Positions 3,177 to 28,162 of a DNA stretch of 32,000 nucleotides are shown one piece after another. How positions within the stretch are numbered: position 1 is the first letter of the stretch; every line of letters starts with the position of its first letter. The stretch is taken from NCBI GenBank assembly GCA_046533775.1, contig JAWDOO010000001.1, positions 90,001 to 122,000 of the forward strand, written 5' to 3'. The notes beneath the pieces were generated by a model. It was not told the DNA's origin and searched no databases. It was given only the letters and a program-made list of their open reading frames with translations. Position numbers and translations under genes: made by a program. The DNA comes from Candidatus Nanopusillus sp. Lineage in GTDB: Archaea > Nanobdellota > Nanobdellia > Nanobdellales > Nanobdellaceae.

Positions 3177-3893
3177 ATGGAAACTGATATTGGACAATTT
3201 GGACCAATGGATAGAGGATGGGCAATATTCTCACCAGAAGGAAAATTAATATTAGTAGAATATGCAAAACAAGCTGCAAAAGCTGGATCAACAGCAATTG
3301 GAATATGTACAATAGATGGTATATTAATAATTGCAGATAAAAAAATTCCAAGCAAGTTAATTATAACAGATTCTATTGAAAAGATTATGGAAATTGATGA
3401 TAATATAATTGGAACATTCTCTGGATTTATACCAGATGGTAGAGTATTAATAGATTATGCAAGGGAAATTGCTCAACAACATAAATTACAATATGGAAAA
3501 CAAATAGATATAGAACTATTAGTAAGAGAAATGAGTGATATAATGCAATCTTATACAAGATTTGGTGGAGTAAGACCTTTTGCTGTATCATTAATAATTG
3601 GTGGAATAGATAAGGATGGTGAACCAAAGTTATTTTCATTGGATCCATCCGGAATATTCTATAGATATAAAGCTGTTGTAATTGGAGAGGGTGAAGATAA
3701 AATTACACCAATATTGGAAGAAAGATATAAAGAGATGGATTTAAATGAAGCAATTAAATTTGGAATAGATGTATTAAAAGAATATTTGGGAAATAATTTT
3801 GCATATGAGAGATTAATATTATCATATGTAAAGAAAGGTGAAAAAGTTAAAACAGTTGAAAATCATAAAGTAAAAGAATTATATGAAGGATAA
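3177..3893 (+). CDS. psmA: Proteasome subunit alpha
   Basis: DRGWAIFSPEGKLILVEYAKQAAKAGSTAIGI matches the alpha-subunit N-terminal signature (YDRaitvFSPdGrLfQVEYA..a...Gst.vGi). 238 aa. Confidence 0.95.
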   Translation: METDIGQFGPMDRGWAIFSPEGKLILVEYAKQAAKAGSTAIGICTIDGILIIADKKIPSKLIITDSIEKIMEIDDNIIGTFSGFIPDGRVLIDYAREIAQQHKLQYGKQIDIELLVREMSDIMQSYTRFGGVRPFAVSLIIGGIDKDGEPKLFSLDPSGIFYRYKAVVIGEGEDKITPILEERYKEMDLNEAIKFGIDVLKEYLGNNFAYERLILSYVKKGEKVKTVENHKVKELYEG

Positions 3894-4572
3894 AGATACA
3901 GAAATAAGTATAAAATATAAAAAGGAAGGTTATAATTTTGAAATAATTGTATATTTAAGAAAGGCTTTTGAATATAAAGAAGGGAAAATAAAAGATATAA
4001 GAGAAGTATTGGCTATAGAAGAAATTTTTAAAGATTCTAAAAAGGGAGAAAGGGCATCAACAGAATCTTTAAAGAGAGTTTTTGGAACTACAGATATTCT
4101 TGAAGTTGCTAAACAAATATTGGAAAATTCTGAGATTCCATTACCAACCGAATATAAGAGAGAATTAATCGAAGAAAAGAAAAAACAGATTATTGAATAT
4201 ATAAGAAGAATAGCATATGACAGTAAAAATAACATGCCATTAACATATGAAAGAGCAAAAGAATTATTTGAAATGATAAAATATAACGTAGATATAAATA
4301 AACCAGTAGAAAAACAAGCTGAAGAAGTTTTAAAAGAAATAAGAAAGAAATATCCATTAAAGATAGAATATAAAAATATAAAACTTGTAGTATATTCAAA
4401 TAGATTTAAAATAATTGGAATAATAAAAAATAAATATAAAATTATAAAAGAAAATTGGGGCGAAAATTATGAAGCAATATTAGAAATTCCAATTGGATTA
4501 TTATCAGAATTTTATTCAGATATAGGAAAATTATGTGGAGAAGATTGTATAGTTGAAGAAATAAAAAAATAA
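3883..4572 (+). CDS. sdo1: Ribosome maturation protein SBDS/Sdo1 family
   Basis: ISIKYKKEGYNFEIIVY..EGKIKDIREVLAIEEIFKDSKKGERASTESLKRVFGTTDILEVAKQIL is the typical FYSH domain. Follows psmA as in the archaeal superoperon, with an 11-nt overlap with psmA. Confidence 0.9.
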   Translation: MKDKDTEISIKYKKEGYNFEIIVYLRKAFEYKEGKIKDIREVLAIEEIFKDSKKGERASTESLKRVFGTTDILEVAKQILENSEIPLPTEYKRELIEEKKKQIIEYIRRIAYDSKNNMPLTYERAKELFEMIKYNVDINKPVEKQAEEVLKEIRKKYPLKIEYKNIKLVVYSNRFKIIGIIKNKYKIIKENWGENYEAILEIPIGLLSEFYSDIGKLCGEDCIVEEIKK

Positions 4573-5241
4573 TTATTGGGATTTTCCTTTATCTCCACCC
4601 TGTTTTTCAGGTCCTTTCCCACCTTCAGAACTAACACTGGTACCTGAGAATATCAAAAATATTCCTATTAGAATAAAAAATATCATTGCAAATAATATAT
4701 AAGGATTAAAAGTTATTATATAAGTTTGCGCCTGTGGAGATGTACCTAAAGTTATTGATAAAAAATAATTTTGATATGCATAATACATAGCTAGTAAAGC
4801 AAATAAAATAATAAACATTACTATTATCAATGGTATATATCTAGCATTACTTGGTTTTCCTTCAGTTGAAAATAATCTTTTTTCTATTAATTCAAACATT
4901 TTACCATTCGTTAAGAAAGATCCTAAAATTATGAAGAAAAAGAATACTAAAATCATTGAAACTACAAAAGCTACAAAATATTGCGTATATAATACAAAAC
5001 CAGTAAATGTTGTTAACAATAATGATGCAGAAACTGATATAATAAATGCTAATGTGCTATTTATATCTTTCTTTGATCCTCCTTCATCTTTCTTTTCTCC
5101 TTTTTCACCTGCTTTTATTATATTATCCATTAAAAATTTTATTAGAAAATATAATATTCCAAAATAGAATAGAAAAACAAATATTAAATTTATTCCTAAT
5201 ACATTTACTACATTTATTATAAAATCTGCAAATGATGTCAT
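4573..5241 (-). CDS. Integral membrane protein, unknown function, with Gly/Lys-rich soluble loop and tail
   Basis: 222 aa with about 5-6 hydrophobic helices. Charged loop AGEKGEKKDEGGSKKD and C-terminal tail SSEGGKGPEKQGGDKGKSQ. No recognisable family. Confidence 0.6.
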   Translation of the reverse strand: MTSFADFIINVVNVLGINLIFVFLFYFGILYFLIKFLMDNIIKAGEKGEKKDEGGSKKDINSTLAFIISVSASLLLTTFTGFVLYTQYFVAFVVSMILVFFFFIILGSFLTNGKMFELIEKRLFSTEGKPSNARYIPLIIVMFIILFALLAMYYAYQNYFLSITLGTSPQAQTYIITFNPYILFAMIFFILIGIFLIFSGTSVSSEGGKGPEKQGGDKGKSQ

Positions 5242-5274: not shown

Positions 5275-6894
5275 TTATATGGAATCATAAATATTTATAT
5301 ATTCGTTTATATTATTTTTCCAATCAAATTTCTTAGATATTTCATACATTTGCTTTTTTATTTCCATCTTATCATATAAATCTAAATTATAATATTGTAA
5401 AAATTTATTATATATAATTTCTTTATCTAAATTGTTTGGATCTACATTAATTATATATTCATGATTTATATTTTTACTTATTAAGTTTCTATAAAATCCA
5501 GTTTTATTAGATAAAACAATTGGAACAAAATTGTTCAATGCTTCTAATGGTGTATATCCATATGGTTCATACCTTGATAAAAATATACCAAAATCAAATG
5601 CTGGTAATATATATTCCAAATCTAAACTAAATAATATATCATTTCCAAGATAAACTGGAACATATATAACTTTTACATAATTATTTTTATCATTATTTAA
5701 ATTATTTTCTCCTAATTTTTCAATTATAATATTATTTTCTACATCATGAGTACATATTGGTGGATTTTTATTTTTTATTCTATCTAATTTATCTAATATA
5801 TTTTTTCCATTATATAAAGATCTAATAATTAAATGTATATTTTCCTCTATATTTTCTTTCAATTTAATATAATCTTTATAAGATCTAATTATATCATCAT
5901 TTTGTCCTTTAATAATGTAAGGAACAAAAATAAATGCAATAGTATTTAATTTCTTTTCATCTAAATATTTTAATAAATCAATAAATAGATCTAAACCCTT
6001 ATTATATGGCTCATATCTACCAATTGTATATATTAGCAAATATTTTTCTGGTAAATCATAATATGGATAAAAATACCAGGTTAAAAATTCATCTATCCAT
6101 TTCTTTGAAATTTTATAATAATTAAATAATTCCTTTTCTTTTACATTTATATAATTGTATGTTATATAATCTGGCTTTCTCTTATATATTTTATATGCCT
6201 CCTCTCCCAAATTATCAGATACTACTGTAAATATATCGGAATTCAATATTGCCTGTTTTTCCAACTGATATTTTGAATTTATTCCCAATCTATATGAATC
6301 TTTATCAGGATCTATTATATTCAATGCATTTTCTACATTTATATTTTTTTCAGATAATGTCCTTCCAATAACTGTTCCATGGATTGTTAATATTGTTTTA
6401 TAATTTAGATTATTTTTCTTTATATATAATATTGTACCACCAGATAACCATTCATGTGCATGTAATATTTTTTTCTCATTAAAATATTTATCTATTTTTT
6501 CTAAAAATATACCAACAGCAACAGACCATAATAAGGGTTCATCAAAAGTAAAATCTGAATTCAAAGAATCTATTTTATACCATTCCCAATATTTATATTT
6601 CCATAGATTTCTTTCTTTATTAAAAAATTCATCAAATTCTATTAAAAATACATTTGGTTTTGATTCAATATTCCAATATCCATAATGTACTTTAATTCCA
6701 TCCAATTGATAATTTATTTCTTTTATATAATCTGGAGGATCTAATTCAATAAATTCTGAATTATTTTTATATGGACCAATTAAAAAATATTTATCCTTAT
6801 ATTTTTCTTTTATATATTTTGCTTTAGTAGATATTACAGTATATATTCCCCCTACTTTATTACATACTTCCCAAGATTGTTCAAATAGTATCAT
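5275..6894 (-). CDS. Glycogen (alpha-glucan) synthase, eukaryote-like GT3 family
   Basis: The N-terminus MILFEQSWEVCNKVGGIYTVISTKAKY is the hallmark GT3 glycogen synthase motif (FEvsWEvcNKVGGIYTVi). 539 aa. HAHEW and EPYGYTPLEA motifs are consistent with the GT-B fold. Confidence 0.85.
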   Translation of the reverse strand: MILFEQSWEVCNKVGGIYTVISTKAKYIKEKYKDKYFLIGPYKNNSEFIELDPPDYIKEINYQLDGIKVHYGYWNIESKPNVFLIEFDEFFNKERNLWKYKYWEWYKIDSLNSDFTFDEPLLWSVAVGIFLEKIDKYFNEKKILHAHEWLSGGTILYIKKNNLNYKTILTIHGTVIGRTLSEKNINVENALNIIDPDKDSYRLGINSKYQLEKQAILNSDIFTVVSDNLGEEAYKIYKRKPDYITYNYINVKEKELFNYYKISKKWIDEFLTWYFYPYYDLPEKYLLIYTIGRYEPYNKGLDLFIDLLKYLDEKKLNTIAFIFVPYIIKGQNDDIIRSYKDYIKLKENIEENIHLIIRSLYNGKNILDKLDRIKNKNPPICTHDVENNIIIEKLGENNLNNDKNNYVKVIYVPVYLGNDILFSLDLEYILPAFDFGIFLSRYEPYGYTPLEALNNFVPIVLSNKTGFYRNLISKNINHEYIINVDPNNLDKEIIYNKFLQYYNLDLYDKMEIKKQMYEISKKFDWKNNINEYINIYDSI

Positions 6895-7553
6895 CTAAAT
6901 ATAATATCAAATATGCTTCTTTTCTTTTTATTGCCAGTTATACAATATGCTAGCTCATCTATATATTTCAATGCCTTTGATTTTTCATTATAAAATGCAA
7001 TTGGCTGATATTGAAATTGATAATTAATAAAATCTTTAATTATTGGAATAATTGCATATACTTCTTTATTATATAAATCCTCTATAAAATCTATTTCAAT
7101 ACTCTTATCATATTTATTTAATACTATTTTAACCTTATTTTTATCTAAAAGATCATATAATTTTTTATTTACATATAGAGAATAGAAATCTGGATTTATT
7201 ACTAAAAAATTTATATCCGATATTTTCTCAATACTTAATATATAATTTATATTTGGAAGTACATCAAAAATAATTATATCATAATACCTTTTCAAATAAT
7301 TTAAATCATTAATACTAAAATCTAAATTATCTATAATTTTTAAATGAAAATATGGTAATATCTTTATTCCTTCATATATTTTATTTCCAAATAATTTTTC
7401 ATTATTTAGAAATATTAAATTCGAAGAATAAATTCCGTTTGTATCTATTATCAATACTTTATAATTATATTCCTTTTTTAAATATGCTGCAAGATTATTT
7501 GCTAACGTAGTTTTTCCAACTCCACCCTTTAATGATATAAAAGATACTATCAT
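6891..7553 (-). CDS. ParA/MinD-family P-loop ATPase
   Basis: Deviant Walker A ISLKGGVGKTTLANNLA, Walker A' VLIIDTN, Walker B DIIIFDVLP. 220 aa. ATGA overlaps on both sides (6891-6894 and 7550-7553). Confidence 0.85.
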   Translation of the reverse strand: MIVSFISLKGGVGKTTLANNLAAYLKKEYNYKVLIIDTNGIYSSNLIFLNNEKLFGNKIYEGIKILPYFHLKIIDNLDFSINDLNYLKRYYDIIIFDVLPNINYILSIEKISDINFLVINPDFYSLYVNKKLYDLLDKNKVKIVLNKYDKSIEIDFIEDLYNKEVYAIIPIIKDFINYQFQYQPIAFYNEKSKALKYIDELAYCITGNKKKRSIFDIIFR

Positions 7554-7864
7554 AATCCTAATAATTTTGAAAATTTTACTTCAGCTTCTTCTTTTGAAAA
7601 TTTTTTCTTTACATATATTTCATGAGTTTTTAAGAAATTTCCTATAATCTTTATATATTCATCTTTATCTTTTGCTTCTTTTATTTTTTCATATAAACTT
7701 TCCTCCTTTAATGAATTTTTTATCCATTCTGGAAAATGATTTTTATGATAATTAAATTTATCTTGATCTGCATTGTATAGCCAAATTAATAAATCTTGAA
7801 GACCATATAATTTTTGTCCATCAATAGTGATAAATGCTTGTTTTTCATCATCAACTTCAATCAT
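7550..7864 (-). CDS. Small conserved-looking protein of unknown function, first gene of the ParA/GT3-synthase operon
   Basis: 104 aa, sequence FITIDGQKLYGLQDLLIWLYNADQDKFNYHKNHFPEWIKNSL. It reminds me of small uncharacterised proteins found next to alpha-glucan genes (possibly DUF5752-like), which I cannot verify without an HMM search. Confidence 0.6.
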   Translation of the reverse strand: MIEVDDEKQAFITIDGQKLYGLQDLLIWLYNADQDKFNYHKNHFPEWIKNSLKEESLYEKIKEAKDKDEYIKIIGNFLKTHEIYVKKKFSKEEAEVKFSKLLGL

Positions 7865-7901
7865 ATTAAATTTTATATTGTTATATCTTTAAAAAATATT
7901 T
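7865..7901. promoter_or_regulatory. 37-bp bidirectional promoter region between the ParA operon and the GH57 gene
   Basis: attaaaTTTTATATtgttatatcTTTAAAAAatattt. One TATA-like box lies about 26 nt from each divergent ATG (7864 and 7902), implying leaderless transcripts in both directions. Confidence 0.4.
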
Positions 7902-9077
7902 ATGACAGGCATTGTATTTTATTTCCATGCACATCAACCAAGAAGAATAAGATATTATTCCTTTTTTGATATTGGATCAAAAAATTATTTCAACGATGAT
8001 CTAAATAAAAAAATACTAGATAGAGTTGTATATAAATGTTATAAACCAGCATTGGAAATGATATATGATAATATTACAAAATATGATATAAAAGTATCAT
8101 TTTCAATTTCTGGAACATTAATTGAGCAATTAGAATTATATCATCCAGAAATTTTAGAATTATGGAAAAAATTAGTAGATACTGGAAATGTAGAAATTGT
8201 ATCTGAAACTTATTATCATTCATTGGCATATTTAATTGATAAAGATGAATTTATTAACCAAATAAAATTGCATAGAAAGAAAATAAAAGAAGTATTTAAT
8301 TATAAATCTAAAAGCTTTAGAAACTTTGAACTTGTATTTAACAATGAAATCGGAGAAATTGTATATTCTTTGGGATATAAAGTAGCATTAACCGAAGGAA
8401 CTGAAAAAATTTTAGGAAATAGGAGTCCAAATTATATATATAAATTAAAAATAAATAATTTAAGATTATTATTAAGAAATTATAGATTATCTGATGATAT
8501 AGGATTTAGATTTACAAATAAAAGTTGGTCAGAATATCCATTAACTGCAGATAAATATTATTTATGGTTAAAAAATACTCCAGGAGATATAATAAATATA
8601 TTCATGGATTTTGAAACAATTGGAGAACATATATGGAAAGAATCTGGAATATTTGAATTTTGGAATAAATTATTTGAGTATATTGGAAAAGAAAAATATT
8701 TTGAAACATATAATATAACTGAAGCCATAGAAGAATTTAATTATAAAGATGAATTAGATATTCCTGAATTAATATCATGGGCTGATATTGAGAGAGATCT
8801 ATCTGCATGGATTGGAGATAGTATACAAAGAGAAGCTTTAGATTATTTGAGAGAATTATATAAAAAATATAAGAATGATGAAAAAATATTAAATATATTG
8901 AGATATTTATCAACTTCAGATAATTTTTATTATATGAGTTTAAAATATAATAGTGATGGAGATGTACATAAATATTTTAGAGAAGAGGCTTTTGCAACTC
9001 CATATGATTCCTTTATATCATATATGAATATTCTAAAAGATATAGAATTAAACCAGGCTATTGAAAATAGAAATTAA
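7902..9077 (+). CDS. Glycoside hydrolase family 57 (alpha-amylase / alpha-glucan-active enzyme)
   Basis: The N-terminal FYFHAHQPRR carries the GH57 region-1 HQP motif. NFELVFNNE and MDFETIGEH correspond to the regions carrying the catalytic Glu and Asp. 391 aa. Confidence 0.85.
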   Translation: MTGIVFYFHAHQPRRIRYYSFFDIGSKNYFNDDLNKKILDRVVYKCYKPALEMIYDNITKYDIKVSFSISGTLIEQLELYHPEILELWKKLVDTGNVEIVSETYYHSLAYLIDKDEFINQIKLHRKKIKEVFNYKSKSFRNFELVFNNEIGEIVYSLGYKVALTEGTEKILGNRSPNYIYKLKINNLRLLLRNYRLSDDIGFRFTNKSWSEYPLTADKYYLWLKNTPGDIINIFMDFETIGEHIWKESGIFEFWNKLFEYIGKEKYFETYNITEAIEEFNYKDELDIPELISWADIERDLSAWIGDSIQREALDYLRELYKKYKNDEKILNILRYLSTSDNFYYMSLKYNSDGDVHKYFREEAFATPYDSFISYMNILKDIELNQAIENRN

Positions 9078-10244
9078 TTTTTCTACAGAATTTTTCCAAG
9101 ATAAATTTTTTATATCATCTAAACATAATTTTATTTCATATTCTCCCAATTTTGGATAAGATAACAATGCCAATATATAATCTGCCATTTTATTTACATC
9201 CCAAAAATCAACTGCCAATGCATTTTTTAATACTTCATATACACCTGTTTGTTTTGATATTATAATAAAATCTTTATATTTTAAAGCTTCAAATGGTGTT
9301 AAACCAAAAGGTTCTGATATAGATGGTAAAACAAATATATCTGCTATTGAATATAAATATTCTGCTAAATCATCATCAACCCATCCTGTAAATATTACAT
9401 TTTTTGATATATTTAAATCTGCAGCCATTTTTATTAATTGTTCCAACATTTCTCCAGTTCCTGCAAATATAAATAATACATCTTTTCTTTTTTCCAAAAC
9501 TTTTTTAGCTGCTTTTAATAAATAATCCGGACCCTTATGCATTGTCATTCTTCCAAGATATAATACTATTTTATATTTTTCTTTTATTTTACTATTTATT
9601 TTTTCTCTTATATTAAAATCATCATCTGGAGCATTATATATTACATCAATCTTCTTTTCATCGCAATTATAATATTTTATCAATATATCCTTTTCTCTTT
9701 TACTTACTACAATAATCTTATCTGCATATTTACAAGCTTCCAACTCTATTCCATAATCATAATCATATAAATATTTTAATATATCTGGGTTCCCTCCAAC
9801 TCTATCATATACTAAAGAATGAAAATGAACAACCAGTGGTTTTTTGTATATTTTCTTTATTTCTATACCTGCTAAAGCAGTTAACCAATCATATGCATAT
9901 ATAATATCAAAATCTAATTTCATTTTTTTCAATATATCTAATATTTTATCTTTATATTCAATTACCGCTTTTTTATAGTCTATAATTTTTCTTTTATATA
10001 ATGTAAAAGATTCATATTTAAAATAATCTATATATGATTGATATACTTTCATATTTAATCCGAAGATTTTTGAATTCTTTAATTTATCATTCCAAAAGGT
10101 TTTTACATCATCGGTCAAGTTTAAAATAAATAAATAAACATTGTTATTAAAATAATCAAGATACTTTAAATAATAATATGTTACTTTTTCTAATCCACCA
10201 CCTTTTTGAGGAAACACTCCCCATGATAAAAACAGTATTTTCAT
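9048..10244 (-). CDS. GT-B glycosyltransferase, archaeal GlgA-like glycogen synthase (GT4/GT5)
   Basis: The N-terminus KILFLSWGVFPQKGGGLEKV resembles archaeal glycogen synthase (fe.lP.KvGGL). C-terminal PSISEPFGLTPFEALKY is the E-x7-E motif. Adjacent to GH57 as in crenarchaeal glycogen clusters. The 3' end overlaps the GH57 3' end by 30 nt. Confidence 0.75.
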   Translation of the reverse strand: MKILFLSWGVFPQKGGGLEKVTYYYLKYLDYFNNNVYLFILNLTDDVKTFWNDKLKNSKIFGLNMKVYQSYIDYFKYESFTLYKRKIIDYKKAVIEYKDKILDILKKMKLDFDIIYAYDWLTALAGIEIKKIYKKPLVVHFHSLVYDRVGGNPDILKYLYDYDYGIELEACKYADKIIVVSKREKDILIKYYNCDEKKIDVIYNAPDDDFNIREKINSKIKEKYKIVLYLGRMTMHKGPDYLLKAAKKVLEKRKDVLFIFAGTGEMLEQLIKMAADLNISKNVIFTGWVDDDLAEYLYSIADIFVLPSISEPFGLTPFEALKYKDFIIISKQTGVYEVLKNALAVDFWDVNKMADYILALLSYPKLGEYEIKLCLDDIKNLSWKNSVEKLISIFNSLV

Positions 10245-10253
10245 AATTAAAAG

Positions 10254-11900
10254 ATGAATATAAATAATTATAAATCTTTTAACAAAAATATTTGTATGGA
10301 AAAAGAAATTGAATTAGAAAATTTTGATTATGCCATTATAAATAATAAGGGTTCCTTTTTGTTTTTACCTTTACTATATAACAGTAGATATTTTGGTTTA
10401 TTACAATATCATAATAACAATTTTATCAAAATAATAGAAAAAATAGAAAATAGGGATATAAATTATAATGAAATTGAAAAGATAATATTAAAAGATTATA
10501 ATGATTTAAAAATAATTTATAAAAATGGATGGGAAGAATATAAATTAATAGATAATAAATTAATATATAAGACAAATAAATACTCTACATTGAATGTTTA
10601 TTTTGATATAAGATATTTATATGATATAGATGAATGGGGAAGGATATATAATAATGAAAAAAATAAGGATTATGTAAAAATAAAATTTAATAAAGGTGAT
10701 TTAAAATATGAAGTAATAATAAAAGGATTTGAAGTTTATCAAGAATTAAATAAATGGATAAAGGTAAATTACAATTATGATTTATATAGAAAATCCCCTC
10801 CATTTGAAAGATATATATATTTACCATTTTCTTTTTATGCAAAAGAATTAGAAATAATATATAAAAATGATAAGGAAAATTTAAATGGAAAAAATTTAAT
10901 TGAAAATAGGTTATTATCTTTTATTTATGATAATAATATCTCTGCAGGTTTTCCATGGTATTTTCAGGAATGGAGTAGAGATATATTAATTTCATTAAAA
11001 GGATTATATTATATTAATAAAGATATTGTAAAAAATAAGTTAATTGAATATTCAGATTATTTTTTATTAGATGGAAGATTAAAAAATATAAAAAATGAAA
11101 ATGTTGGAAATTCTGATGGGATTGGATTATATATTTTTAGATTATTTCAATTTAAAGATTTATTTGAAAAAGAAATATTTGACAAATTAATAAATAATAT
11201 AATTGAAAAAATAAAATTATTTGAAGAAAATTATTTAGATGAAAAATTATTTTTATTTAAAGCATATCCAAATGAAACATGGATGGATACATTAAATAGA
11301 ATTTATCCAATAGAAATACAATTCTTAATGGCAAATGCATATGATAATTTATATAATTATACAAAGAAAGATGAATATAAAGAAAAATTGGAGAAAATAA
11401 GGAATTCAATTAGAAAGAATTATTTATCAGATTATTCTTTATATGATGATATAAAAAATAAAAAGATAAGATGTAATGTATTTTTATCATATTATTTTTA
11501 TCCAAAGGTTTTTTCAAATTATGAGTGGGAAAATATTTTTGATTATTCATTAACTCATTTATATCTAAAATGGGGAGGAATTAGTAGTTTATCTATATTT
11601 GATAAAGAATTTATTCCATATAGTAATGAGGATAATTATTTTAAAAATGAAGGAAAGTCAATGCATAATGGAGATTCATGGATTTTTATAAATAACATTG
11701 CTGCTATTGATTTATATAATTTAAATAAGGAAAAATATGGAAATATAATAAATAGTATTATAAAATCTAATGAAAGATTGATAAAAATGATAGGAACATT
11801 ACCAGAAAGATCTAGTGCATATGAATTAAAACCAGCAGGAGCTCTACATCAATTATGGTCAATATCAACTTATATAGAATTATTAAATAATATAAAATAG
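10254..11900 (+). CDS. Glycogen debranching enzyme, amylo-alpha-1,6-glucosidase (GDE_C) family
   Basis: GFPWYFQEWSRDILISLKGL, HNGDSWIFINN and LPERSS..GALHQLWSISTYIELL match GDE_C signatures (gyPWF..WgRDt.Isl.Gl; QaWSa). Alternative start at Met15 (10296) has a TTATAAAT box about 26 nt upstream. Confidence 0.85.
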   Translation: MNINNYKSFNKNICMEKEIELENFDYAIINNKGSFLFLPLLYNSRYFGLLQYHNNNFIKIIEKIENRDINYNEIEKIILKDYNDLKIIYKNGWEEYKLIDNKLIYKTNKYSTLNVYFDIRYLYDIDEWGRIYNNEKNKDYVKIKFNKGDLKYEVIIKGFEVYQELNKWIKVNYNYDLYRKSPPFERYIYLPFSFYAKELEIIYKNDKENLNGKNLIENRLLSFIYDNNISAGFPWYFQEWSRDILISLKGLYYINKDIVKNKLIEYSDYFLLDGRLKNIKNENVGNSDGIGLYIFRLFQFKDLFEKEIFDKLINNIIEKIKLFEENYLDEKLFLFKAYPNETWMDTLNRIYPIEIQFLMANAYDNLYNYTKKDEYKEKLEKIRNSIRKNYLSDYSLYDDIKNKKIRCNVFLSYYFYPKVFSNYEWENIFDYSLTHLYLKWGGISSLSIFDKEFIPYSNEDNYFKNEGKSMHNGDSWIFINNIAAIDLYNLNKEKYGNIINSIIKSNERLIKMIGTLPERSSAYELKPAGALHQLWSISTYIELLNNIK

Positions 11901-11901
11901 A

Positions 11902-12816
11902 ATGTGGTGGAAAAAATATGGATTCTCTAAGAATCCATTAGATATAAGACCAAATGAAGATTTGGTAGGAGTAGATGATATAATAAAAAAGGTAAAGGAT
12001 TCTATAATAAATGGTGAAATATTTCTATTATATGGTCCAATTGGTTCTGGGAAAACTTCCTTAGCATTTAAAATTAAAAAAGATCTATCAAATGACTATA
12101 ATATAATATATATAAATGGGGAATATGAAAAGGATAAAGATATAAATTACATAATTGAAAAAAATAAATATATTAAGTTTTTATTCTTTAAATTTGAAAA
12201 TAAATCGCCTATAGTATTAATATTAGATGAATTTTATAATTTTCCAGAAGATGTATCTAAAAAACTAAAATATTTATATGATAATAAAATTGCTCATTCA
12301 ATAATGTTAATTCAACCATCTCCACAAATAATGAATGCTACACTATCTTTCTTAAATAGATTATATAGAAAGATTGAAATGAAATTTCCTCCAGAAGATG
12401 AAATATTAAAATTAATAAATAAAAAATTAAAGGGAAAAGTAAATATAGATGAAAAAATATTGAGAAATATAATAAGAAAGAATAATAATAATGTTAGGCA
12501 GATATTTATTGAATTAAATAATTTATTAGAGGAAGGAATAAATAATATAAATAAAGAATTAGAAGAAATAAAGAATTTAGAAGATAATATAAAATTGTCA
12601 AATACACAAATAAAGATTCTAGAAGTATTATATAAAAATAAAATGTCTTCAAGAGAAATATCAAAAATATTAAATCTTCCAAGGAATACTGTATCAAAAT
12701 ATTTGAATAAAATGCATAAAAATGGTATATTAATAAGAGAAGTAAATAATAATGAATATATTTATAGTATAAATCCTCAATATATAAATATTATATCAAA
12801 GAAAATTGGAAAATAG
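11902..12816 (+). CDS. Compact Orc1/Cdc6-like AAA+ ATPase with C-terminal winged helix-turn-helix
   Basis: Walker A LLYGPIGSGKTSLA, Walker B VLILDEF. LNRLYRKIEMKFPPEDEILKLINKKL resembles the Orc1/Cdc6 sRl...i.F.pY...el..IL block. C-terminal wHTH LSNTQIKILEVLYKNKMSSREISKILNLPRNTVSKYLNKMHKNGILIRE. Only 304 aa. Starts 1 nt after the debranching gene stop. Confidence 0.5.
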   Translation: MWWKKYGFSKNPLDIRPNEDLVGVDDIIKKVKDSIINGEIFLLYGPIGSGKTSLAFKIKKDLSNDYNIIYINGEYEKDKDINYIIEKNKYIKFLFFKFENKSPIVLILDEFYNFPEDVSKKLKYLYDNKIAHSIMLIQPSPQIMNATLSFLNRLYRKIEMKFPPEDEILKLINKKLKGKVNIDEKILRNIIRKNNNNVRQIFIELNNLLEEGINNINKELEEIKNLEDNIKLSNTQIKILEVLYKNKMSSREISKILNLPRNTVSKYLNKMHKNGILIREVNNNEYIYSINPQYINIISKKIGK

Positions 12817-13684: not shown

Positions 13685-15961
13685 TTAATATAAAATAAAT
13701 ATTATTACTCCAACTATTCCTCCAATTAATAATCCAATATTTAAATAATTATATTGAATTTTTTTATTGAATTGTATAACGATATTTAAAGGCTGATTTA
13801 CAATATAATTGTATCCATTTTCATAATAAATTGTATTATAAAAGAATCCTGGATAAATATATTTTGAAGGTAAAATATTTATTATAGTTCCACTATTTAA
13901 AAAGATAGAAACATTTCCATAATTATTTATAGAATTATTTATAGAAACATTTACTAAGAATGGTGTATTAATATTTACTAGATATTGATATATACAATAA
14001 TTAGACAAATTAATACTTATTGGAGAAGTTATATTTATTGTTATATTATTTTGATTGCAATATAATCTTTCCTGATTATTTATATAATTAATTGAATTTA
14101 TTAATATTATAATATTGTTATTTGCATTTATATAAAAACTATTATTTCCAGAATATGTATTATTATTTATTGTATAATTAAATGGGAAAGATATATTTAA
14201 TTGATATTGTAAATAGCAATAATTTGATAGATTAATAATTTCTGAACTATTTATATTTAATGTTATATTATTTGGACAATAATATTGATAATTTCCAAAA
14301 TTATATGCTTGATTTAAGTAAATATTCAATAAATTATTTGCATAAAGGTAATATATATTATTATAGTATGTTTCATTTAAATAATTTCCAGAAATTGTAA
14401 AATTTATTCCAATGCTATCATTTATAGCAACTAAATAATATTCTGTATAGTTTGCAGAAATATTATAATTGTTATTTACTAACAAACCTATATTTATATA
14501 TTGTTGGGAATAATTAATATTATAACTTTCTCCATTTATTGTTAAATTATTTAGTAAATATAATGTATTGTTTTGGTAAATATATATTGGGATATTTATA
14601 TTAAAAACTGTTCCAAATGGATATTGATAATTTATATATGAATTATTGTAAGAATAATAAATTGATATATTATAATTTAAAGTATTTGTACTTCCCAAAT
14701 ATTCTGGATAAAAAGGACCTTCAGATAAATTTACAAATCCTTGTGATATTATATTTTCATTAATATTTGATGAATATTCTGCTGTATTAAAACCATAATT
14801 AAATATTGAAGGATCTGGAGTAAGATATTGATTATTATATAAATAATATAAACCCAAATAACCATTAATATTATTTATATCTATACAAGTTCCATATCCA
14901 GGTCCTCCAATAACTAATTCTAAATCTTCCATATTATTGGAACCAGTAAGAGATGGAGAAATAACTATATTTCCATTTGATGGAATTAATAGTGTAACAT
15001 TATCATACCAATATATATTTTGTCCATCTAAACTATATCCAAATTGTATTTCTGGATAAGAATTATTTTGAGTAACATTAATTATTAAATATACATTTAA
15101 TGGATATTGCAAATTAGAATAATTTGTTTCATATACATAAAAATATTTATTATAATAATTACTTACTATTCCATTTCCTTCAATTAAATTATTTGATAAA
15201 TAAGAATTTGAAGAAGTAAAATTCCATATATTATCAGCAAATTCATAATATCCGCCAGTATTATTTATTAATAAAACATTTTGTAACCAATAATATTGAC
15301 CATTACTTAATTCTAAGATTGCATTTAATTGTATAGAGCCAGAATTTTCACCTATAAAATTATTAGAACATAAAGGATCAACATATGAACTAAAACTATT
15401 TAAATAAATATCCCCAACAACTTCATCTGTTGTAATATTATATCCATAAATATTTCCATTACTAATATATATACCGTAATCAGAAATTCCTATTGGAAAA
15501 TAAATATTATTTATTACTTGATTTGTTAAAATGTATGTAAAATAATAATATGCATTCTGTGTATTATTATTATAAATTACTATATAATAATTTCCGGAAG
15601 ATAAAAATATACTTTGATTTATATAATTTGTATATGTATTATAAATTGAAGTAAAATTACTACCATTTTGAAAATTTTGATAATTTTGTTGATTCATTAT
15701 ATAAAAATTTAAAGGAATTGATGAATTGAAATATATATTTAAATATTGATTTGATGAATTTATTGGATAAGAAAAATAATATCCCGAATATAAAATATAA
15801 AAATCACCGTAAGATCCTTGTCCCAAATTATATAGATTTAATTGATTTATATTTATAGAATTTACTGGAATATTAAACAATGTTGATGAATAATTTTGTG
15901 AGTATGTATTAAAAAAATTAAATATTAGAATTAATAATGTAAATAGTTTTAATTTATTCAT
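13685..15961 (-). CDS. Thermopsin-family (peptidase A5) secreted protein with C-terminal repeat domains and transmembrane anchor
   Basis: Sec-type signal MNKLKLFTLLILIFNFFNTYSQ. Three blocks parallel Sulfolobus thermopsin: FPIGISDYGIY..YNITTDEVVGDIYLNS, SIQLNAILELSNGQYYWLQNV..FADNIWNFT and LELVIGGPGYG..INGYLGLYY..FNYGFNTAEY. The corresponding thermopsin blocks are PAGIASFGLY..ITTNEMLGYVNITS, TLQFNIVL..YAYWLQDV..FIDNVWNLT and AELVWGGGGNG..LGLYY..TFGADTAEA. C-terminal helix LNIGLLIGGIVGVIIFILY. Very many N-x-S/T sequons. Confidence 0.8.
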   Translation of the reverse strand: MNKLKLFTLLILIFNFFNTYSQNYSSTLFNIPVNSININQLNLYNLGQGSYGDFYILYSGYYFSYPINSSNQYLNIYFNSSIPLNFYIMNQQNYQNFQNGSNFTSIYNTYTNYINQSIFLSSGNYYIVIYNNNTQNAYYYFTYILTNQVINNIYFPIGISDYGIYISNGNIYGYNITTDEVVGDIYLNSFSSYVDPLCSNNFIGENSGSIQLNAILELSNGQYYWLQNVLLINNTGGYYEFADNIWNFTSSNSYLSNNLIEGNGIVSNYYNKYFYVYETNYSNLQYPLNVYLIINVTQNNSYPEIQFGYSLDGQNIYWYDNVTLLIPSNGNIVISPSLTGSNNMEDLELVIGGPGYGTCIDINNINGYLGLYYLYNNQYLTPDPSIFNYGFNTAEYSSNINENIISQGFVNLSEGPFYPEYLGSTNTLNYNISIYYSYNNSYINYQYPFGTVFNINIPIYIYQNNTLYLLNNLTINGESYNINYSQQYINIGLLVNNNYNISANYTEYYLVAINDSIGINFTISGNYLNETYYNNIYYLYANNLLNIYLNQAYNFGNYQYYCPNNITLNINSSEIINLSNYCYLQYQLNISFPFNYTINNNTYSGNNSFYINANNNIIILINSINYINNQERLYCNQNNITINITSPISINLSNYCIYQYLVNINTPFLVNVSINNSINNYGNVSIFLNSGTIINILPSKYIYPGFFYNTIYYENGYNYIVNQPLNIVIQFNKKIQYNYLNIGLLIGGIVGVIIFILY
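13862..14284 (-). repeat. Intragenic tandem duplication (two ~70-aa Cys-pair modules) in the thermopsin-like protein
   Basis: YYCPNNITLNINSSEIINLSNYCYLQYQLNISFPF.. versus LYCNQNNITINITSPISINLSNYCIYQYLVNINTPF... Shared pattern YC..NNIT.NI.S.I.INLSNYC..QY..NI..PF. Confidence 0.6.
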
Positions 15962-24688: not shown

Positions 24689-25807
24689 CTATTTTATATC
24701 CTCAAATCTTTGAACTAGTTTATCTAATATAGGTTTTACTGTAGTTGTTAATAAATCTTCATAAGATACCCTATGAGGTTCAAATGGGCCATGCCTTCTA
24801 ATATAATCTGCAATTTCTAATGCTTTATTTCTTGTATAATCAAATGCTGGATCATCAAACATATCTTCTGGACCATATAATTTATCTTTCTTTACTTGAA
24901 ATCCCAATGCAATTACCCTTGGAGGTCCATCAAACCTTGTAGCTCTTGCATTCTTTAAACTTACAGGTAATAAAGGACCCCAATATGATCCTCTCATCCA
25001 CCCATTTACCATATATGGAAATGAAAAAGCTTCCAATATTTCTCCTACTGCAGGAAATCCTTTTTGTGCTCTTACAATCATTACTGGATCATCCTTTCCA
25101 GCATATCTACCAGCTTCTTCATATAATCTTTCTGTAGAAGATACTGCAACAGGTTCATCTTTTGGATATTTATCGGATCTTGGATATACCCTTTTTATAG
25201 CAAACCTTTCAGATGTTCCAATTAATAATAATAAATCATAAATTTCTTCTGGAGAATTTAAATATATTCTTTTATGATTATACAAATCCCATACTTCAAA
25301 TCTAAATCCAGGTCTCATGTCTGGATCAATTACTAAACCTGGTGTATTAAATGGATTTGCAAACATTTGAAATAAAGGATAATTAAATGCTCCAGATTCT
25401 GTTTTGTCTGCAGCAAATACAATTATTGATTCTGGAGATCTTAATGTAAATTCCATTTCTGCAACTCCAGGTCCCATTCCAATTAATGAACCAGTAAATT
25501 CTTTTTTTATTAAATCCCCTCCTGCACCATATAAATTCATTTCTTTTGCAATTTCAGAATTTTTCTTAAATATTTCAAATGCAATTTGATGTATTTCTCT
25601 ATTATTTTCCCCTTTATTATGTAATAATATTAAGTTTAAATCATCCCCTACATGTGATACAAAATAATCGAATATTTTTTCTCCCTTATATTTATCTAAT
25701 ATATCTGAAGCTGTTTCTTCAAATATTTCTGGAATTGTTGAATTTCCAACTAAACTTCCTATATCAGCTTTTAAAACACTTATTGTTATTTTTTCTGATG
25801 ATGTCAT
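24689..25807 (-). CDS. fbp: Bifunctional fructose-1,6-bisphosphate aldolase/phosphatase (class V FBPase)
   Basis: Near-colinear with the known enzyme: ITISVLKADIGSLVG, VSHVGDDLNLILLH, GMGPGVAEMEF, FANPFNTPGLVIDP, GKDDPVMIVRAQ, GWMRGSYWGPLLPV, ATRFDGPPRVIALGF, DMFDDPAFD. 372 aa. Confidence 0.95.
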   Translation of the reverse strand: MTSSEKITISVLKADIGSLVGNSTIPEIFEETASDILDKYKGEKIFDYFVSHVGDDLNLILLHNKGENNREIHQIAFEIFKKNSEIAKEMNLYGAGGDLIKKEFTGSLIGMGPGVAEMEFTLRSPESIIVFAADKTESGAFNYPLFQMFANPFNTPGLVIDPDMRPGFRFEVWDLYNHKRIYLNSPEEIYDLLLLIGTSERFAIKRVYPRSDKYPKDEPVAVSSTERLYEEAGRYAGKDDPVMIVRAQKGFPAVGEILEAFSFPYMVNGWMRGSYWGPLLPVSLKNARATRFDGPPRVIALGFQVKKDKLYGPEDMFDDPAFDYTRNKALEIADYIRRHGPFEPHRVSYEDLLTTTVKPILDKLVQRFEDIK

Positions 25808-25902: not shown

Positions 25903-27090
25903 ATGGCAAAGAGTTCACCTCCTTACATAAAATATATGATACATGCATCAGTATATATTGATGGAGTAGTTGAAAAACCAGATGTAATAGGAGCAATATT
26001 TGGGCAAACAGAAGGTTTGTTAGGATCTGAAATGGATCTAAGAGAATTACAGAGATCTGGAAAAGTTGGAAGAATAGATGTAGATCTTAAGGTAGAAAAT
26101 GATAAAACAATTGGGGAAATTAGAATACCAACAAGTTTAAATAGATTTGAAACTTCATTAATTGCTGCAACATTGGAAACTGTAACTAGAATTGGACCAA
26201 CACATGCAACAATAAAGGTACAAAAGATAGAAGATATAAGAAAAACAAAGGTACAACAAATATTAGAGAGAGCTAGAGAATTATTAGCAAAATTAATAAA
26301 CGAAGAATTACCAGATCCAAAAGAATTACTATTATATTTAGAATATTCATATAATATGAAAACATTAATTGAATATGGACCAGAAAAATTACCTGCAGGA
26401 CCTGATGTAGATAAATCTGAAGAAATAATATTAGTAGAGGGAAGGGCAGATGTTCTAAATTTATTAAGATATGGAATTACAAATGTAATAGCATTAAATG
26501 GATTAAATGTACCAAAAACAATTATTGATTTATCAAAGAAAAAAATAATAACAACATTCTTTGATGGAGATAGGGGTGGAGATTTATTAGTAAAAGAATG
26601 TATGCTAAGTGGTGTTGATATTGATTTTGTAGCAAAGCCAGAACCTGGAAGAGAGGTTGAAGAATTATCTGGAAAAGAAATATTAAAAGCATTAAAGAAT
26701 AAAATATCATTTGATCAAGTTAGGGCATATTATGAAAAATTAGAGGGAACTACTGAAGATATAAAAAATATTAGAAGCGAAAAGAAGATAAAGGATCCAA
26801 TATTACAGAAATTAAAATCATATATGAATGATATATTTAAATCAGATCAAGCTTTATTATTAGATGATAACTTTAATATATTAAATAAAGTACCTGTAGA
26901 TAAATTGGGAGAAATAATATTGAAACATAATAATTTAGCATATTTAGTAATGGATGGTATATTAACAAGAGAATTATTAGAATTAATAGAAAAAAGTACA
27001 AACATAAAATATGTTGTATGTATAGATAGTATACAAAAAAATAGTAATAAGGTAAAGATATATACAATAAGCGATCTTGATAAAGTCTAA
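25903..27090 (+). CDS. dnaG: Archaeal DnaG-type primase (TOPRIM; exosome-associated)
   Basis: IKYMIHASVYIDGVVEKPDVIGAIFGQTEGLLGSEMDLRELQRSGKVGRIDV is the archaeal DnaG N-terminal signature. TOPRIM motifs ILVEGRADVLNL and FFDGDRGGD. Confidence 0.93.
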   Translation: MAKSSPPYIKYMIHASVYIDGVVEKPDVIGAIFGQTEGLLGSEMDLRELQRSGKVGRIDVDLKVENDKTIGEIRIPTSLNRFETSLIAATLETVTRIGPTHATIKVQKIEDIRKTKVQQILERARELLAKLINEELPDPKELLLYLEYSYNMKTLIEYGPEKLPAGPDVDKSEEIILVEGRADVLNLLRYGITNVIALNGLNVPKTIIDLSKKKIITTFFDGDRGGDLLVKECMLSGVDIDFVAKPEPGREVEELSGKEILKALKNKISFDQVRAYYEKLEGTTEDIKNIRSEKKIKDPILQKLKSYMNDIFKSDQALLLDDNFNILNKVPVDKLGEIILKHNNLAYLVMDGILTRELLELIEKSTNIKYVVCIDSIQKNSNKVKIYTISDLDKV

Positions 27091-27565: not shown

Positions 27566-28162
27566 ATGGATGAATTTAATAAATTAAAAATATATCATAT
27601 GAAAAAACTTGAGGAAGCTAAGGAAAAATATTTAGCAGACCAACCTATATATTATATTCTAGATTTTATTAATTCATTAGATTTCTTTTTTACAACATCT
27701 TCATGTGCTGGTAGAATAATTTTATTAAAAATACCAAAAAGTGGGAAAAAATTTGAGGCAGAATTTCTATTTAAATCTCATTATTATGTAAATTTTTATT
27801 ATATATGGAATAAATTATTAGAAGTATATAAAAATTATGATGAGAAAATATACTTTAAACAAGAACCATTTATTTTACATGTATCTTCAAAAAATATAGA
27901 AAGAGCATATGAACTATTGAATATTGCAAGAAAATCTGGATTCAAACATTCTGGAATATTTTTGATAAATGATAAAAGGGTAATGGTTGAAATTGTTGGA
28001 AATGAAAAAATTGAAACAATTGTATCAAAAAATAGAAAATTATTAATAGATAAAGAATATTTTTATAATTTAGTAAAAGAGGCAAATGAGAAATTAAAGA
28101 ATGTAAGAAAAAGAATAGATATATTTTATAAAAATCTTCTATCCTATTATATTACAATATGA
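27566..28162 (+). CDS. taw3: tRNA wyosine-derivative methyltransferase Taw3 (TYW3 family)
   Basis: FNKLKIYHMKKLEEAKE..ILDFINSLDFFFTTSSCAGRIILL...FLFKSHYYV matches the TYW3 signature (F...K...L...D..i..ll..iN....yfTtSSCsGRi ... K.H). The start codon lies 5 bp from the divergent 27560 start. Confidence 0.75.
   Translation: MDEFNKLKIYHMKKLEEAKEKYLADQPIYYILDFINSLDFFFTTSSCAGRIILLKIPKSGKKFEAEFLFKSHYYVNFYYIWNKLLEVYKNYDEKIYFKQEPFILHVSSKNIERAYELLNIARKSGFKHSGIFLINDKRVMVEIVGNEKIETIVSKNRKLLIDKEYFYNLVKEANEKLKNVRKRIDIFYKNLLSYYITI

Follow-up and report, generated by a model that had tools for sequence, protein, structure and literature searches.

Conservation of a DUF5752 protein, a MinD-like ATPase and a GT3 glycogen synthase as a gene trio in the Nanopusillaceae, and its possible role in membrane tethering of glycogen synthesis

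The DNA analysed here is a 32,000-nucleotide stretch of a Candidatus Nanopusillus sp. genome (GenBank assembly GCA_046533775.1, contig JAWDOO010000001.1, forward-strand positions 90,001 to 122,000), referred to throughout, at its full length, as the window. Its list of open reading frames (ORFs) includes three consecutive minus-strand genes, hereafter the trio, which encode a protein of 104 amino acids (aa), a 220-aa ATPase with a deviant Walker A motif, and a glycogen synthase of glycosyltransferase family GT3. The trio sits within a GT4/GH57/GH133 glycogen cluster, there is an ATGA start/stop overlap at both of its junctions (7550-7553 and 6891-6894), and close homologues, at 92-98% identity, are from Candidatus Nanopusillus and Nanobsidianus. 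The genes and features of the locus, in window positions and with the basis of each assignment in brackets, are:

4573..5241, minus strand: multi-pass membrane protein, 222 aa, 33 bp downstream of the GT3 gene (ORF)
5275..6894, minus strand: GT3 glycogen synthase, 539 aa (Pfam PF05693 at 6.3e-75)
6891..7553, minus strand: MinD/ParA-family (SIMIBI) ATPase, 220 aa (Pfam, motif alignment, AlphaFold2 [AF2] model, Foldseek)
7550..7864, minus strand: DUF5752 (OrfY-like) protein, 104 aa, first gene of the trio (ORF; family-level PF19027 match)
7865..7901, no strand: divergent AT-rich intergenic region of 37 bp between the DUF5752 and GH57 start codons (sequence)
7902..9077, plus strand: GH57 family protein, amylase-like or possibly a branching enzyme (Pfam PF03065 at 1.5e-73)
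9048..10244, minus strand: GT4/GT5-like glycosyltransferase of the cluster (Pfam Glycos_transf_1 at 2.1e-34)
10254..11900, plus strand: GH133-type amylo-alpha-1,6-glucosidase (GDE_C), the debranching enzyme (Pfam PF06202 at 4e-18)
11902..12816, plus strand: AAA_14 ATPase with a C-terminal TrmB/ArsR-type winged helix (Pfam)

An initial annotation, made from the letters of the window, had described the three ORFs with their strand, coordinates and ATGA junctions, and had named the second and third products as a ParA/MinD-type ATPase and a GT3 synthase; the ORF list and sequence bear out the former and Pfam the latter. It had further reasoned that such tight coupling in a streamlined genome makes the association functional, an argument that carries little force since overlaps are common in this genome. 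Eight of the 19 same-strand neighbour pairs in the window overlap, as counted from the ORF list, so that an ATGA overlap is weak evidence of function here, and genes on opposite strands, convergent or divergent, also overlap by 4-30 nt (9048-9077, 27087-27090 and 28139-28162). With genome compaction this extreme the overlaps are uninformative about function, and it is the comparison with relatives, not the overlaps, that places the association of the three genes beyond chance.

All recovered loci of the Nanopusillaceae type (L001-L009 and L012), two of them from Nanobdella aerobiophila (L001 and L002), carry the trio with its overlapping starts and stops. The trio is intact even at L009, where the synthase is 44% identical to that of the window and an AI-2E transporter gene and a KaiC-like gene have been inserted downstream. 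The link to a glycogen gene drawn in the initial annotation is both real and conserved. The KaiC-like gene of L009 directly follows the GT3 gene. The next-closest GT3 synthases (40-41% identity; L010 and L011) have neither partner gene alongside within the recovered flanks. Synteny across the family extends to the unrelated flanking genes for SBDS, proteasome alpha, TFIIB and Lon, and for this reason conservation within the family is by itself no proof of function.

The first protein of the trio had been suspected to be DUF5752-like, an impression that holds for the family and fails for the window copy taken alone: 10 of 12 family members match PF19027 (DUF5752) in Pfam, with a best E of 1.2e-5, whereas the window protein scanned singly against Pfam gave no match even at E up to 10. 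The PF19027 model, of 208 positions, comprises two copies of a module of about 80 residues, and the window protein is a single module. The family profile also matches twice, at E 1e-6, to PDB entry 4CSO, the solved DUF5752-family structure, a 216-aa protein of two modules that its depositors label 'OrfY protein, transcription factor'. An AF2 model of the 104-aa protein (predicted local distance difference test score, pLDDT, 80.9; residues 10-80 above 90) predicts a core consisting of a beta-hairpin followed by helices; a Foldseek search of the PDB with this single-module model returned nothing at E <1 and did not link it to 4CSO. The window protein is without a transmembrane segment or a basic N-terminal tail, its N-terminus being acidic (MIEVDDEKQ), and it carries a conserved C-terminal helix, EEAEvxFxKxxxL.

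Searched against 1.84 billion representative proteins, the DUF5752 profile gathered 600 clusters at E up to 1e-3, in which the domain is stand-alone, duplicated, or fused to KaiC-like or HerA/FtsK-like ATPases. The fusion of DUF5752 to these other P-loop ATPases marks an ATPase as its habitual partner. Large metagenomic fusions of the KaiC-like type are seen in P0279, P0345 and P0346, and of the HerA/FtsK-like type in P0281 and P0320. No mention of DUF5752 or PF19027, nor of the Thermoproteus tenax OrfY, was found in the literature searched, and DUF5752 is a conserved, unstudied accessory family with no established function for any member.

Gene neighbourhoods were surveyed from both ends of the trio, using 80 GT3 loci from GTDB species representatives, searched with our own hidden Markov models, and 80 metagenome loci found by the DUF5752 profile. 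The recurrent cluster order is GT4 - GH57 - (DUF5752) - GT3 - GH133. DUF5752 is present in 17 of the 33 archaeal-labelled GT3 loci (Woesearchaeota, Altiarchaeales and other DPANN), always straight after GH57 and mostly directly before GT3, and in none of the 46 bacterial-labelled loci (Bacteroidales, Planctomycetota and the candidate phyla radiation), where GT4, GH57 and GT3 are adjacent. Bacterial GT3 genes of about 4.2 kb, which encode the synthase fused to a large extra region, occur in this GT4-GH57-GT3 order at loci with no DUF5752 (L048, L050, L054, L056, L063-L068, L070 and L073-L091, from Bacteroidales and others). In the metagenomes GH57 lies directly upstream of DUF5752 at 28 of 43 loci with enough flank, and GT3 lies downstream at 21 of 39. 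Within DPANN GT3 glycogen clusters it is DUF5752, and not the ATPase, that is the conserved partner. The initial annotation had proposed to look for ParA-like genes co-occurring with GT3 genes; MinD-like genes do recur in this neighbourhood, but the broadly conserved partner is DUF5752, usually without an ATPase.

DUF5752 usually occurs as a pair of proteins. One is short and soluble, with a lysine/arginine-rich N-terminal tail; in the other, which is long, the N-terminal DUF5752 domain is followed by a disordered linker of 50-600 residues and, at the extreme C-terminus, by a transmembrane helix (Kyte-Doolittle maximum 2.1-3.3 over 19 residues). Long proteins anchored by their tails in this way are encoded at L019, L020, L028, L029, L031, L033, L034, L040, L041, L043, L069, L085 and many of L096-L175, and those of Woesearchaeal origin frequently contain the motif EFxxGxxxGLxxG. 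The basic N-terminal tails of the short paralogues are found in ATPase-free lineages and in ATPase-bearing loci of the L039 type.

Outside the Nanopusillaceae a MinD-like gene stands beside DUF5752 at eight loci, L039 from the genome survey and L104, L111, L118, L124, L143, L162 and L168 from the metagenome survey. At five of the eight it is visibly located between DUF5752 and GT3; at L104 it lies between two DUF5752 genes, and at L111 the contig ends inside the ATPase gene. None of these eight loci encodes a transmembrane-anchored DUF5752. When the comparison is drawn among glycogen-context loci with complete genes, an anchor is present at none of seven loci with the ATPase and at 30 of 45 without it (Fisher p = 0.0013, uncorrected for phylogeny). 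The tail-anchored and the MinD-associated forms of DUF5752 appear to substitute for each other. In a tree of the GH57 proteins, five ATPase-bearing loci fall in one clade, with L168 nearby and the Nanopusillaceae far off, and from this spread it follows that the pattern of ATPase without anchor arose at least twice.

The ATPase itself has the P-loop SLKGGVGKTT at residues 7-16, with the signature lysine K9 and K14-T15, all invariant in its clade; in the alignment its Walker A' motif is D37-T-N39 and its Walker B aspartate is D97. Residue N39 is an asparagine at the position of the water-activating aspartate D40 of MinD (D44 of Soj). The same asparagine is found in all DPANN MinD-like proteins aligned, in glycogen and non-glycogen contexts alike, and so it is not special to the glycogen-cluster ATPases; its presence throughout the alignment suggests a slow or partner-dependent ATPase across the DPANN MinD-like proteins. 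Between switch I and Walker B a deletion has removed about 35 residues. Pfam identifies AAA_31 (5.7e-13) and CbiA/MinD/ParA (1.7e-11), while CBP_BcsQ (PF06564) matches just residues 3-49; these Pfam matches all fall short of the family cut-offs. The scores against curated NCBIfam models are all far under their cut-offs: 35.1 bits for TIGR03371 (cut-off 157.85), 44.5 for minD_arch (cut-off 201.75) and 27.8 for minD_bact (cut-off 212.9).

The AF2 model of the ATPase (pLDDT 89.4) has the alpha-beta-alpha fold and seven-stranded sheet of solved MinD/ParA proteins. Its top Foldseek matches are the MinD structures 4V02 (E 2.5e-11, template modelling [TM] score 0.77), 4V03 and 1HYQ (TM 0.78), with TM scores of 0.76-0.78 overall, and after these come ParA, Soj, SegA, BcsQ and FlhG. 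At its C-terminus the ATPase has a basic, amphipathic tail, KKKRSIFDIIFR, with a charge of +4, which aligns with the membrane-targeting helix of Escherichia coli MinD. The hydrophobic moment of the tail is 0.45-0.73 in the clade, and a helix is predicted at residues 214-218 with low AF2 confidence. Neither MinC nor MinE is present in the Pfam table of tested ORFs (most of them at least 90 aa), for which no scan aimed at MinC/MinE models was made.

Among the matches listed, the ATPase belongs to a clade confined to the Nanopusillaceae, with lengths of 220-238 residues and identities down to about 41%; a gap in E from 1.5e-40 to 8.7e-15 follows, and then the general DPANN MinD-like family, with proteins about 264 residues long. 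The initial annotation had allowed that the gene might prove to be an ordinary archaeal MinD; what we find is a separate, shortened clade, seen only in this trio. A neighbor-joining (NJ) tree resolves the general family into group A (80% support) and group B (78% support), group B holding the cluster-associated ATPases of the L039 group and L104, and the Nanopusillaceae clade, supported at 100%, hangs on a long branch whose position the tree does not resolve. The L039 ATPase was considered as an orthologue of the window ATPase and rejected, as what it resembles, at 45-54% identity, is the general DPANN MinD-like family; judged by the tree, the cluster ATPases of the Nanopusillaceae and of the L039 group may have one origin or two. 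Several genes of the general family (P0102, P0121, P0125 and P0113) lie in non-glycogen contexts. No second Nanopusillus-labelled MinD-like protein is present among the 120 matches listed.

In the L039 group the long DUF5752 protein ends not in an anchor but in an amphipathic peptide, …DDKKxxMLSHLKKVY/F, which resembles the ATPase tail, …PRxxSKxxxxFKR. A shared amphipathic C-terminus of the form …LxHLKxVY/F+ is seen on proteins encoded just upstream of group-B DPANN MinD-like genes (L039 3995-5110, L118 6277-7122, L124 1762-2427, L143 5856-6734, L162 6311-7171 and L176 1-3234). At L176 a similar peptide ends an unrelated coiled-coil protein of 1077 aa, upstream of another MinD-like gene. Such a peptide may serve generally to dock MinD or to bind the membrane.

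Residues 4-20 of the GT3 synthase are FEQSWEVCNKVGGIYTV, and the PF05693 match, over residues 5-527, is full-length. Its closest solved relatives in the PDB are the yeast (Gsy2p), worm and human (GYS1) glycogen synthases, at E 1e-62 to 1e-57, and by sequence its catalytic apparatus is intact, with R293, K299-G300 and E443...E451 invariant in the alignment. Three deletions make it shorter than the related Woesearchaeal enzymes. No archaeal GT3 enzyme has been characterised or tested for activity (PMC11046441).

The initial annotation stated that no ParA-type system dedicated to a glycogen synthase had been described; where glucan synthases are concerned this misses the E. coli BcsR-BcsQ-BcsA system, which has the same gene order and logic, an operon in which the gene for a small helical protein is followed by one for a MinD/ParA-family ATPase and one for a processive glucan synthase. 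The small protein, BcsR, clamps a SIMIBI ATPase dimer lacking the catalytic aspartate, and the pair is essential for the glucan synthase and contacts it; BcsQ forms ATP sandwich dimers with no water-activating aspartate, BcsR sits on the dimer interface, and the complex is located at the membrane (PMC7840130). The two systems differ in that threonine replaces the cis P-loop lysine in BcsQ, whereas the window ATPase keeps KGGVGKT (K14), and in that the CBP_BcsQ model matches the window ATPase at its P-loop region alone. BcsA, moreover, is a bacterial membrane GT2 enzyme that makes a secreted beta-glucan, in contrast to a soluble archaeal GT3 enzyme of a storage alpha-glucan. BcsR, which we take to be DUF2629, is unrelated to DUF5752.

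With MinD, the source of its best structural matches, the window ATPase shares the signature lysine of the deviant Walker A motif, and its basic amphipathic tail, which aligns with the MinD helix, may be a counterpart of it; it departs from MinD in the deletion of about 35 residues, the asparagine at D40, the minD_arch score below cut-off, and its location in a metabolic operon. Haloferax MinD4 reportedly positions the archaellum and chemosensory arrays. A SIMIBI ATPase with a small adaptor for a dedicated cargo is known in kind, and the present system is no new category. The tie between a MinD/ParA-family switch and an alpha-glucan synthase, and the alternation of anchor and ATPase, appear to be undescribed in the literature searched.

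We tentatively favour a reading, plausible though short of probable, in which the trio is the form that an accessory module of DPANN glycogen clusters takes in the Nanopusillaceae, and provides ATP-gated membrane tethering or assembly in a MinD- or BcsRQ-like manner. Membrane tethering or assembly is preferred to the positioning of granules along DNA because one DUF5752 paralogue is membrane-anchored in most lineages. The ATPase would replace the permanent anchor and make the attachment or assembly of a DUF5752-synthase complex at the membrane reversible and ATP-dependent. As to how the proteins interact, bind the membrane and affect glycogen, we infer a series of steps. ATP binding would bring the ATPase into a sandwich dimer by way of the signature lysine K9, and the paired C-terminal helices of the dimer would then engage the membrane. 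The dimer would grip the DUF5752 protein, probably by the C-terminal helix of the latter, and DUF5752 would attach to GT3, to the enzymes that work with it or to the growing glycogen particle. The synthesis or storage of glycogen would in this way be assembled at the membrane only when ATP is present. The asparagine in place of the water-activating aspartate (MinD D40) suggests that hydrolysis would be slow and triggered by a partner, as in BcsQ.

Several observations weigh against membrane tethering. The family-wide synteny takes in unrelated neighbours (SBDS, proteasome and TFIIB), and overlaps are common. Fifteen of the 45 ATPase-free loci are also without a transmembrane anchor, so that anchoring is not obligatory, and five of the seven complete ATPase-bearing loci are in one clade, which reduces the alternation to two or three independent events. 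The ATPase tail is short, and the hydrophobic moment of the window copy, at 0.53, stands only a little over background, the internal 95th percentile being 0.56. The depositors of the PDB entry call OrfY, the DUF5752 prototype, a transcription factor. Lastly, as no second Nanopusillus MinD is seen among the 120 matches listed, the ATPase could also, or only, be a housekeeping MinD.

The transcription-factor label leads to an alternative that we regard as unlikely, namely that the OrfY-like DUF5752 protein, by binding DNA or enzymes, regulates the sugar-polymer genes and is sequestered by the anchor or the ATPase, so that cluster expression or synthase activity would track the energy or sugar state. 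The match of the family profile to 4CSO speaks for such a regulatory module, as do the basic tails of the short paralogues and the location of the DUF5752 gene at what is presumed to be a bidirectional promoter region of 37 bp. In T. tenax, orfY is reportedly co-transcribed with the GT4 gene treT, and OrfY is presumably linked to a GT4 gene for a sugar polymer or trehalose; regulators of sugar metabolism are known to be sequestered at the membrane, as with Mlc and PtsG. OrfY carries the module twice, and the 104-aa protein carries it once, together with an ATPase partner. Against a regulatory module, the AF2 model of the 104-aa protein is without a recognisable DNA-binding fold and without a Foldseek match in the PDB at E <1, the cluster already contains a separate candidate regulator in the winged helix-turn-helix (wHTH) AAA protein, and the disordered linkers of up to 600 residues with their tail anchors look more like tethers.

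It is rather unlikely that the ATPase is a hitch-hiker, that is, the sole MinD/ParA homologue of the lineage, with housekeeping duties, that has drifted into the operon and left DUF5752 as the only glycogen-related partner. This explanation stays alive because no other Nanopusillus-labelled MinD-like protein appears among the 120 matches listed; related DPANN MinD-like genes (P0102, P0121 and P0125) do reside in non-glycogen contexts, and the family-wide synteny and frequent overlaps weaken any argument from the operon. A drifting gene would not be expected from the recurrence of MinD-like genes exactly between DUF5752 and GT3 in distant clusters, however, or from their alternation with a transmembrane anchor. 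The ATPase clade has, in addition, a shortened sequence and evolves fast, with no member seen outside the trio, L009 keeps the trio despite its changed downstream genes, and the next-closest GT3 lineages have neither gene by the synthase within the recovered flanks.

The initial annotation had suggested a module for the positioning or regulation of glycogen granules, with ParA-type systems such as McdAB as precedents. On a model of that kind the ATPase would bind the nucleoid non-specifically and DUF5752 would act as the stimulating cargo adaptor, with granules or synthase foci spaced and partitioned along the DNA. We consider this quite unlikely, as the ATPase looks MinD-like in fold (TM 0.76-0.78) and tail, unlike a ParA or McdA that binds the nucleoid. 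The known ParA systems (McdAB, ParA/ParB and PpfA) resemble the trio in pairing an ATPase of the same superfamily with a small partner for non-DNA cargo, and the deviant Walker A motif with its signature lysine, the good structural matches to ParA, Soj and SegA, and the small upstream partner are all as expected of them. The basic N-terminal tails of short DUF5752 paralogues elsewhere are like ParA-stimulating peptides, and the transcription-factor label of the DUF5752 prototype may be counted on the same side. Yet those systems use the nucleoid as their matrix and have no membrane helix, whereas here the tail, the relatives and the substitute anchors speak for the membrane: MinD structures are matched best, the tail can be aligned with the membrane helix of MinD, the ATPase is closest in sequence to DPANN MinD-like proteins, and most lineages have a membrane-anchored DUF5752 partner and no ATPase. 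The N-terminus of the window DUF5752 is acidic and not basic, and cells 100-300 nm across (PMC4935971) offer little space for gradient-based spacing.

Very unlikely, finally, is a soluble BcsRQ-like factor, in which two DUF5752 and two ATPase subunits would bind GT3 without a membrane and act in a slow, one-shot, ATP-dependent stabilising, priming or switch-on step: it would fit the gene order of bcsR-bcsQ-bcsA, the substituted catalytic aspartate (asparagine here, cysteine or serine in BcsQ), the contact of BcsR, a small helical clamp at the dimer interface, with the glycosyltransferase domain, the presence of BcsQ among the structural matches of the ATPase, and the lack of a known glycogenin for prokaryotic GT3 synthases (PMC11046441), but conserved tail anchors in ATPase-free lineages and amphipathic tails imply that the membrane matters, and the asparagine is general to DPANN MinD-like proteins, those in non-glycogen contexts included. 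An anti-phage or phage origin for the DUF5752/ATPase pair was also considered and rejected, PADLOC and PHROG matches being at chance level save for a generic ParA family.

The best PDB matches of the GT4/GT5-like transferase are Pyrococcus GlgA, MshA and GlgM; the function of this GT4 is marked as unclear in a 2024 review of alpha-glucan metabolism (PMC11046441). The GDE_C/GH133 gene is kept in the cluster among the relatives' loci. The AAA_14-wHTH gene begins 1 nt past the debranching-enzyme gene, and a counterpart follows GDE_C in L001 and L003; its product may regulate the transcription of the glycogen cluster. The spacing of the DUF5752 and GH57 start codons, 37 bp in the window, is about 36 bp in L001, L003 and L005, and the region is presumed to be a very compact bidirectional promoter giving leaderless transcripts. 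Homologues of the 222-aa membrane protein follow GT3 in L001 and L002 (E 1e-42); its membership of the module is doubtful, since two inserted genes part the homologue from GT3 in L009. Elsewhere in the window are genes for a class V fructose-1,6-bisphosphatase (24689-25807, minus strand; PF01950, 2.5e-153) and a thermopsin-like protease of 758 aa (13685-15961, minus strand), and proteasome-alpha and SBDS genes that overlap each other (3177-4572, plus strand); together these fit a gluconeogenic, host-dependent nanoarchaeon.

A bolder and distinctly unlikely reading is that DUF5752 is the missing organiser of prokaryotic GT3 glycogen synthesis, a membrane-attached scaffold that functionally takes the place of glycogenin or Stbd1, with the anchor swapped for an ATP-gating MinD-type ATPase in the Nanopusillaceae and a few Woesearchaeal lineages. 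GT4, GH57 and GT3 would then build the glycogen particle on a nucleation or scaffold site provided by DUF5752. Stbd1 is a membrane-anchored glycogen tether in eukaryotes, and the likeness is that a small accessory protein organises the GT3 synthase or is required by it; the difference is that glycogenin and Stbd1 have no sequence or fold relationship to DUF5752, in which there is no GT8 or CBM20 domain. Priming or binding of glycogen by DUF5752 is pure speculation. According to the 2024 review, DPANN archaea have no glycogenin, and how their GT3 enzymes are started and controlled is unknown; its drawings of DPANN GT3/GT4/GH57/GH133 clusters include white arrows for 'unrelated' genes (PMC11046441).

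The paper describing Nanopusillus mentions stored glycogen and not these genes, and reports that the organism is without an ATP synthase (PMC4935971). The identification of DUF5752 in these clusters provides a concrete handle on where and how the smallest known cells make storage glycogen. If the membrane-tethering model is true, a metabolic enzyme system would join the cargoes of MinD/ParA-family switches, for which the only comparable case so far is the BcsRQ cellulose synthase system. An ATP-gated storage switch would bear on the survival of Nanopusillus off its host. If DUF5752 is indeed the organiser of GT3 glycogen synthesis, attachment and hence storage would be gated by ATP, which is scarce and host-derived in organisms with no ATP synthase.

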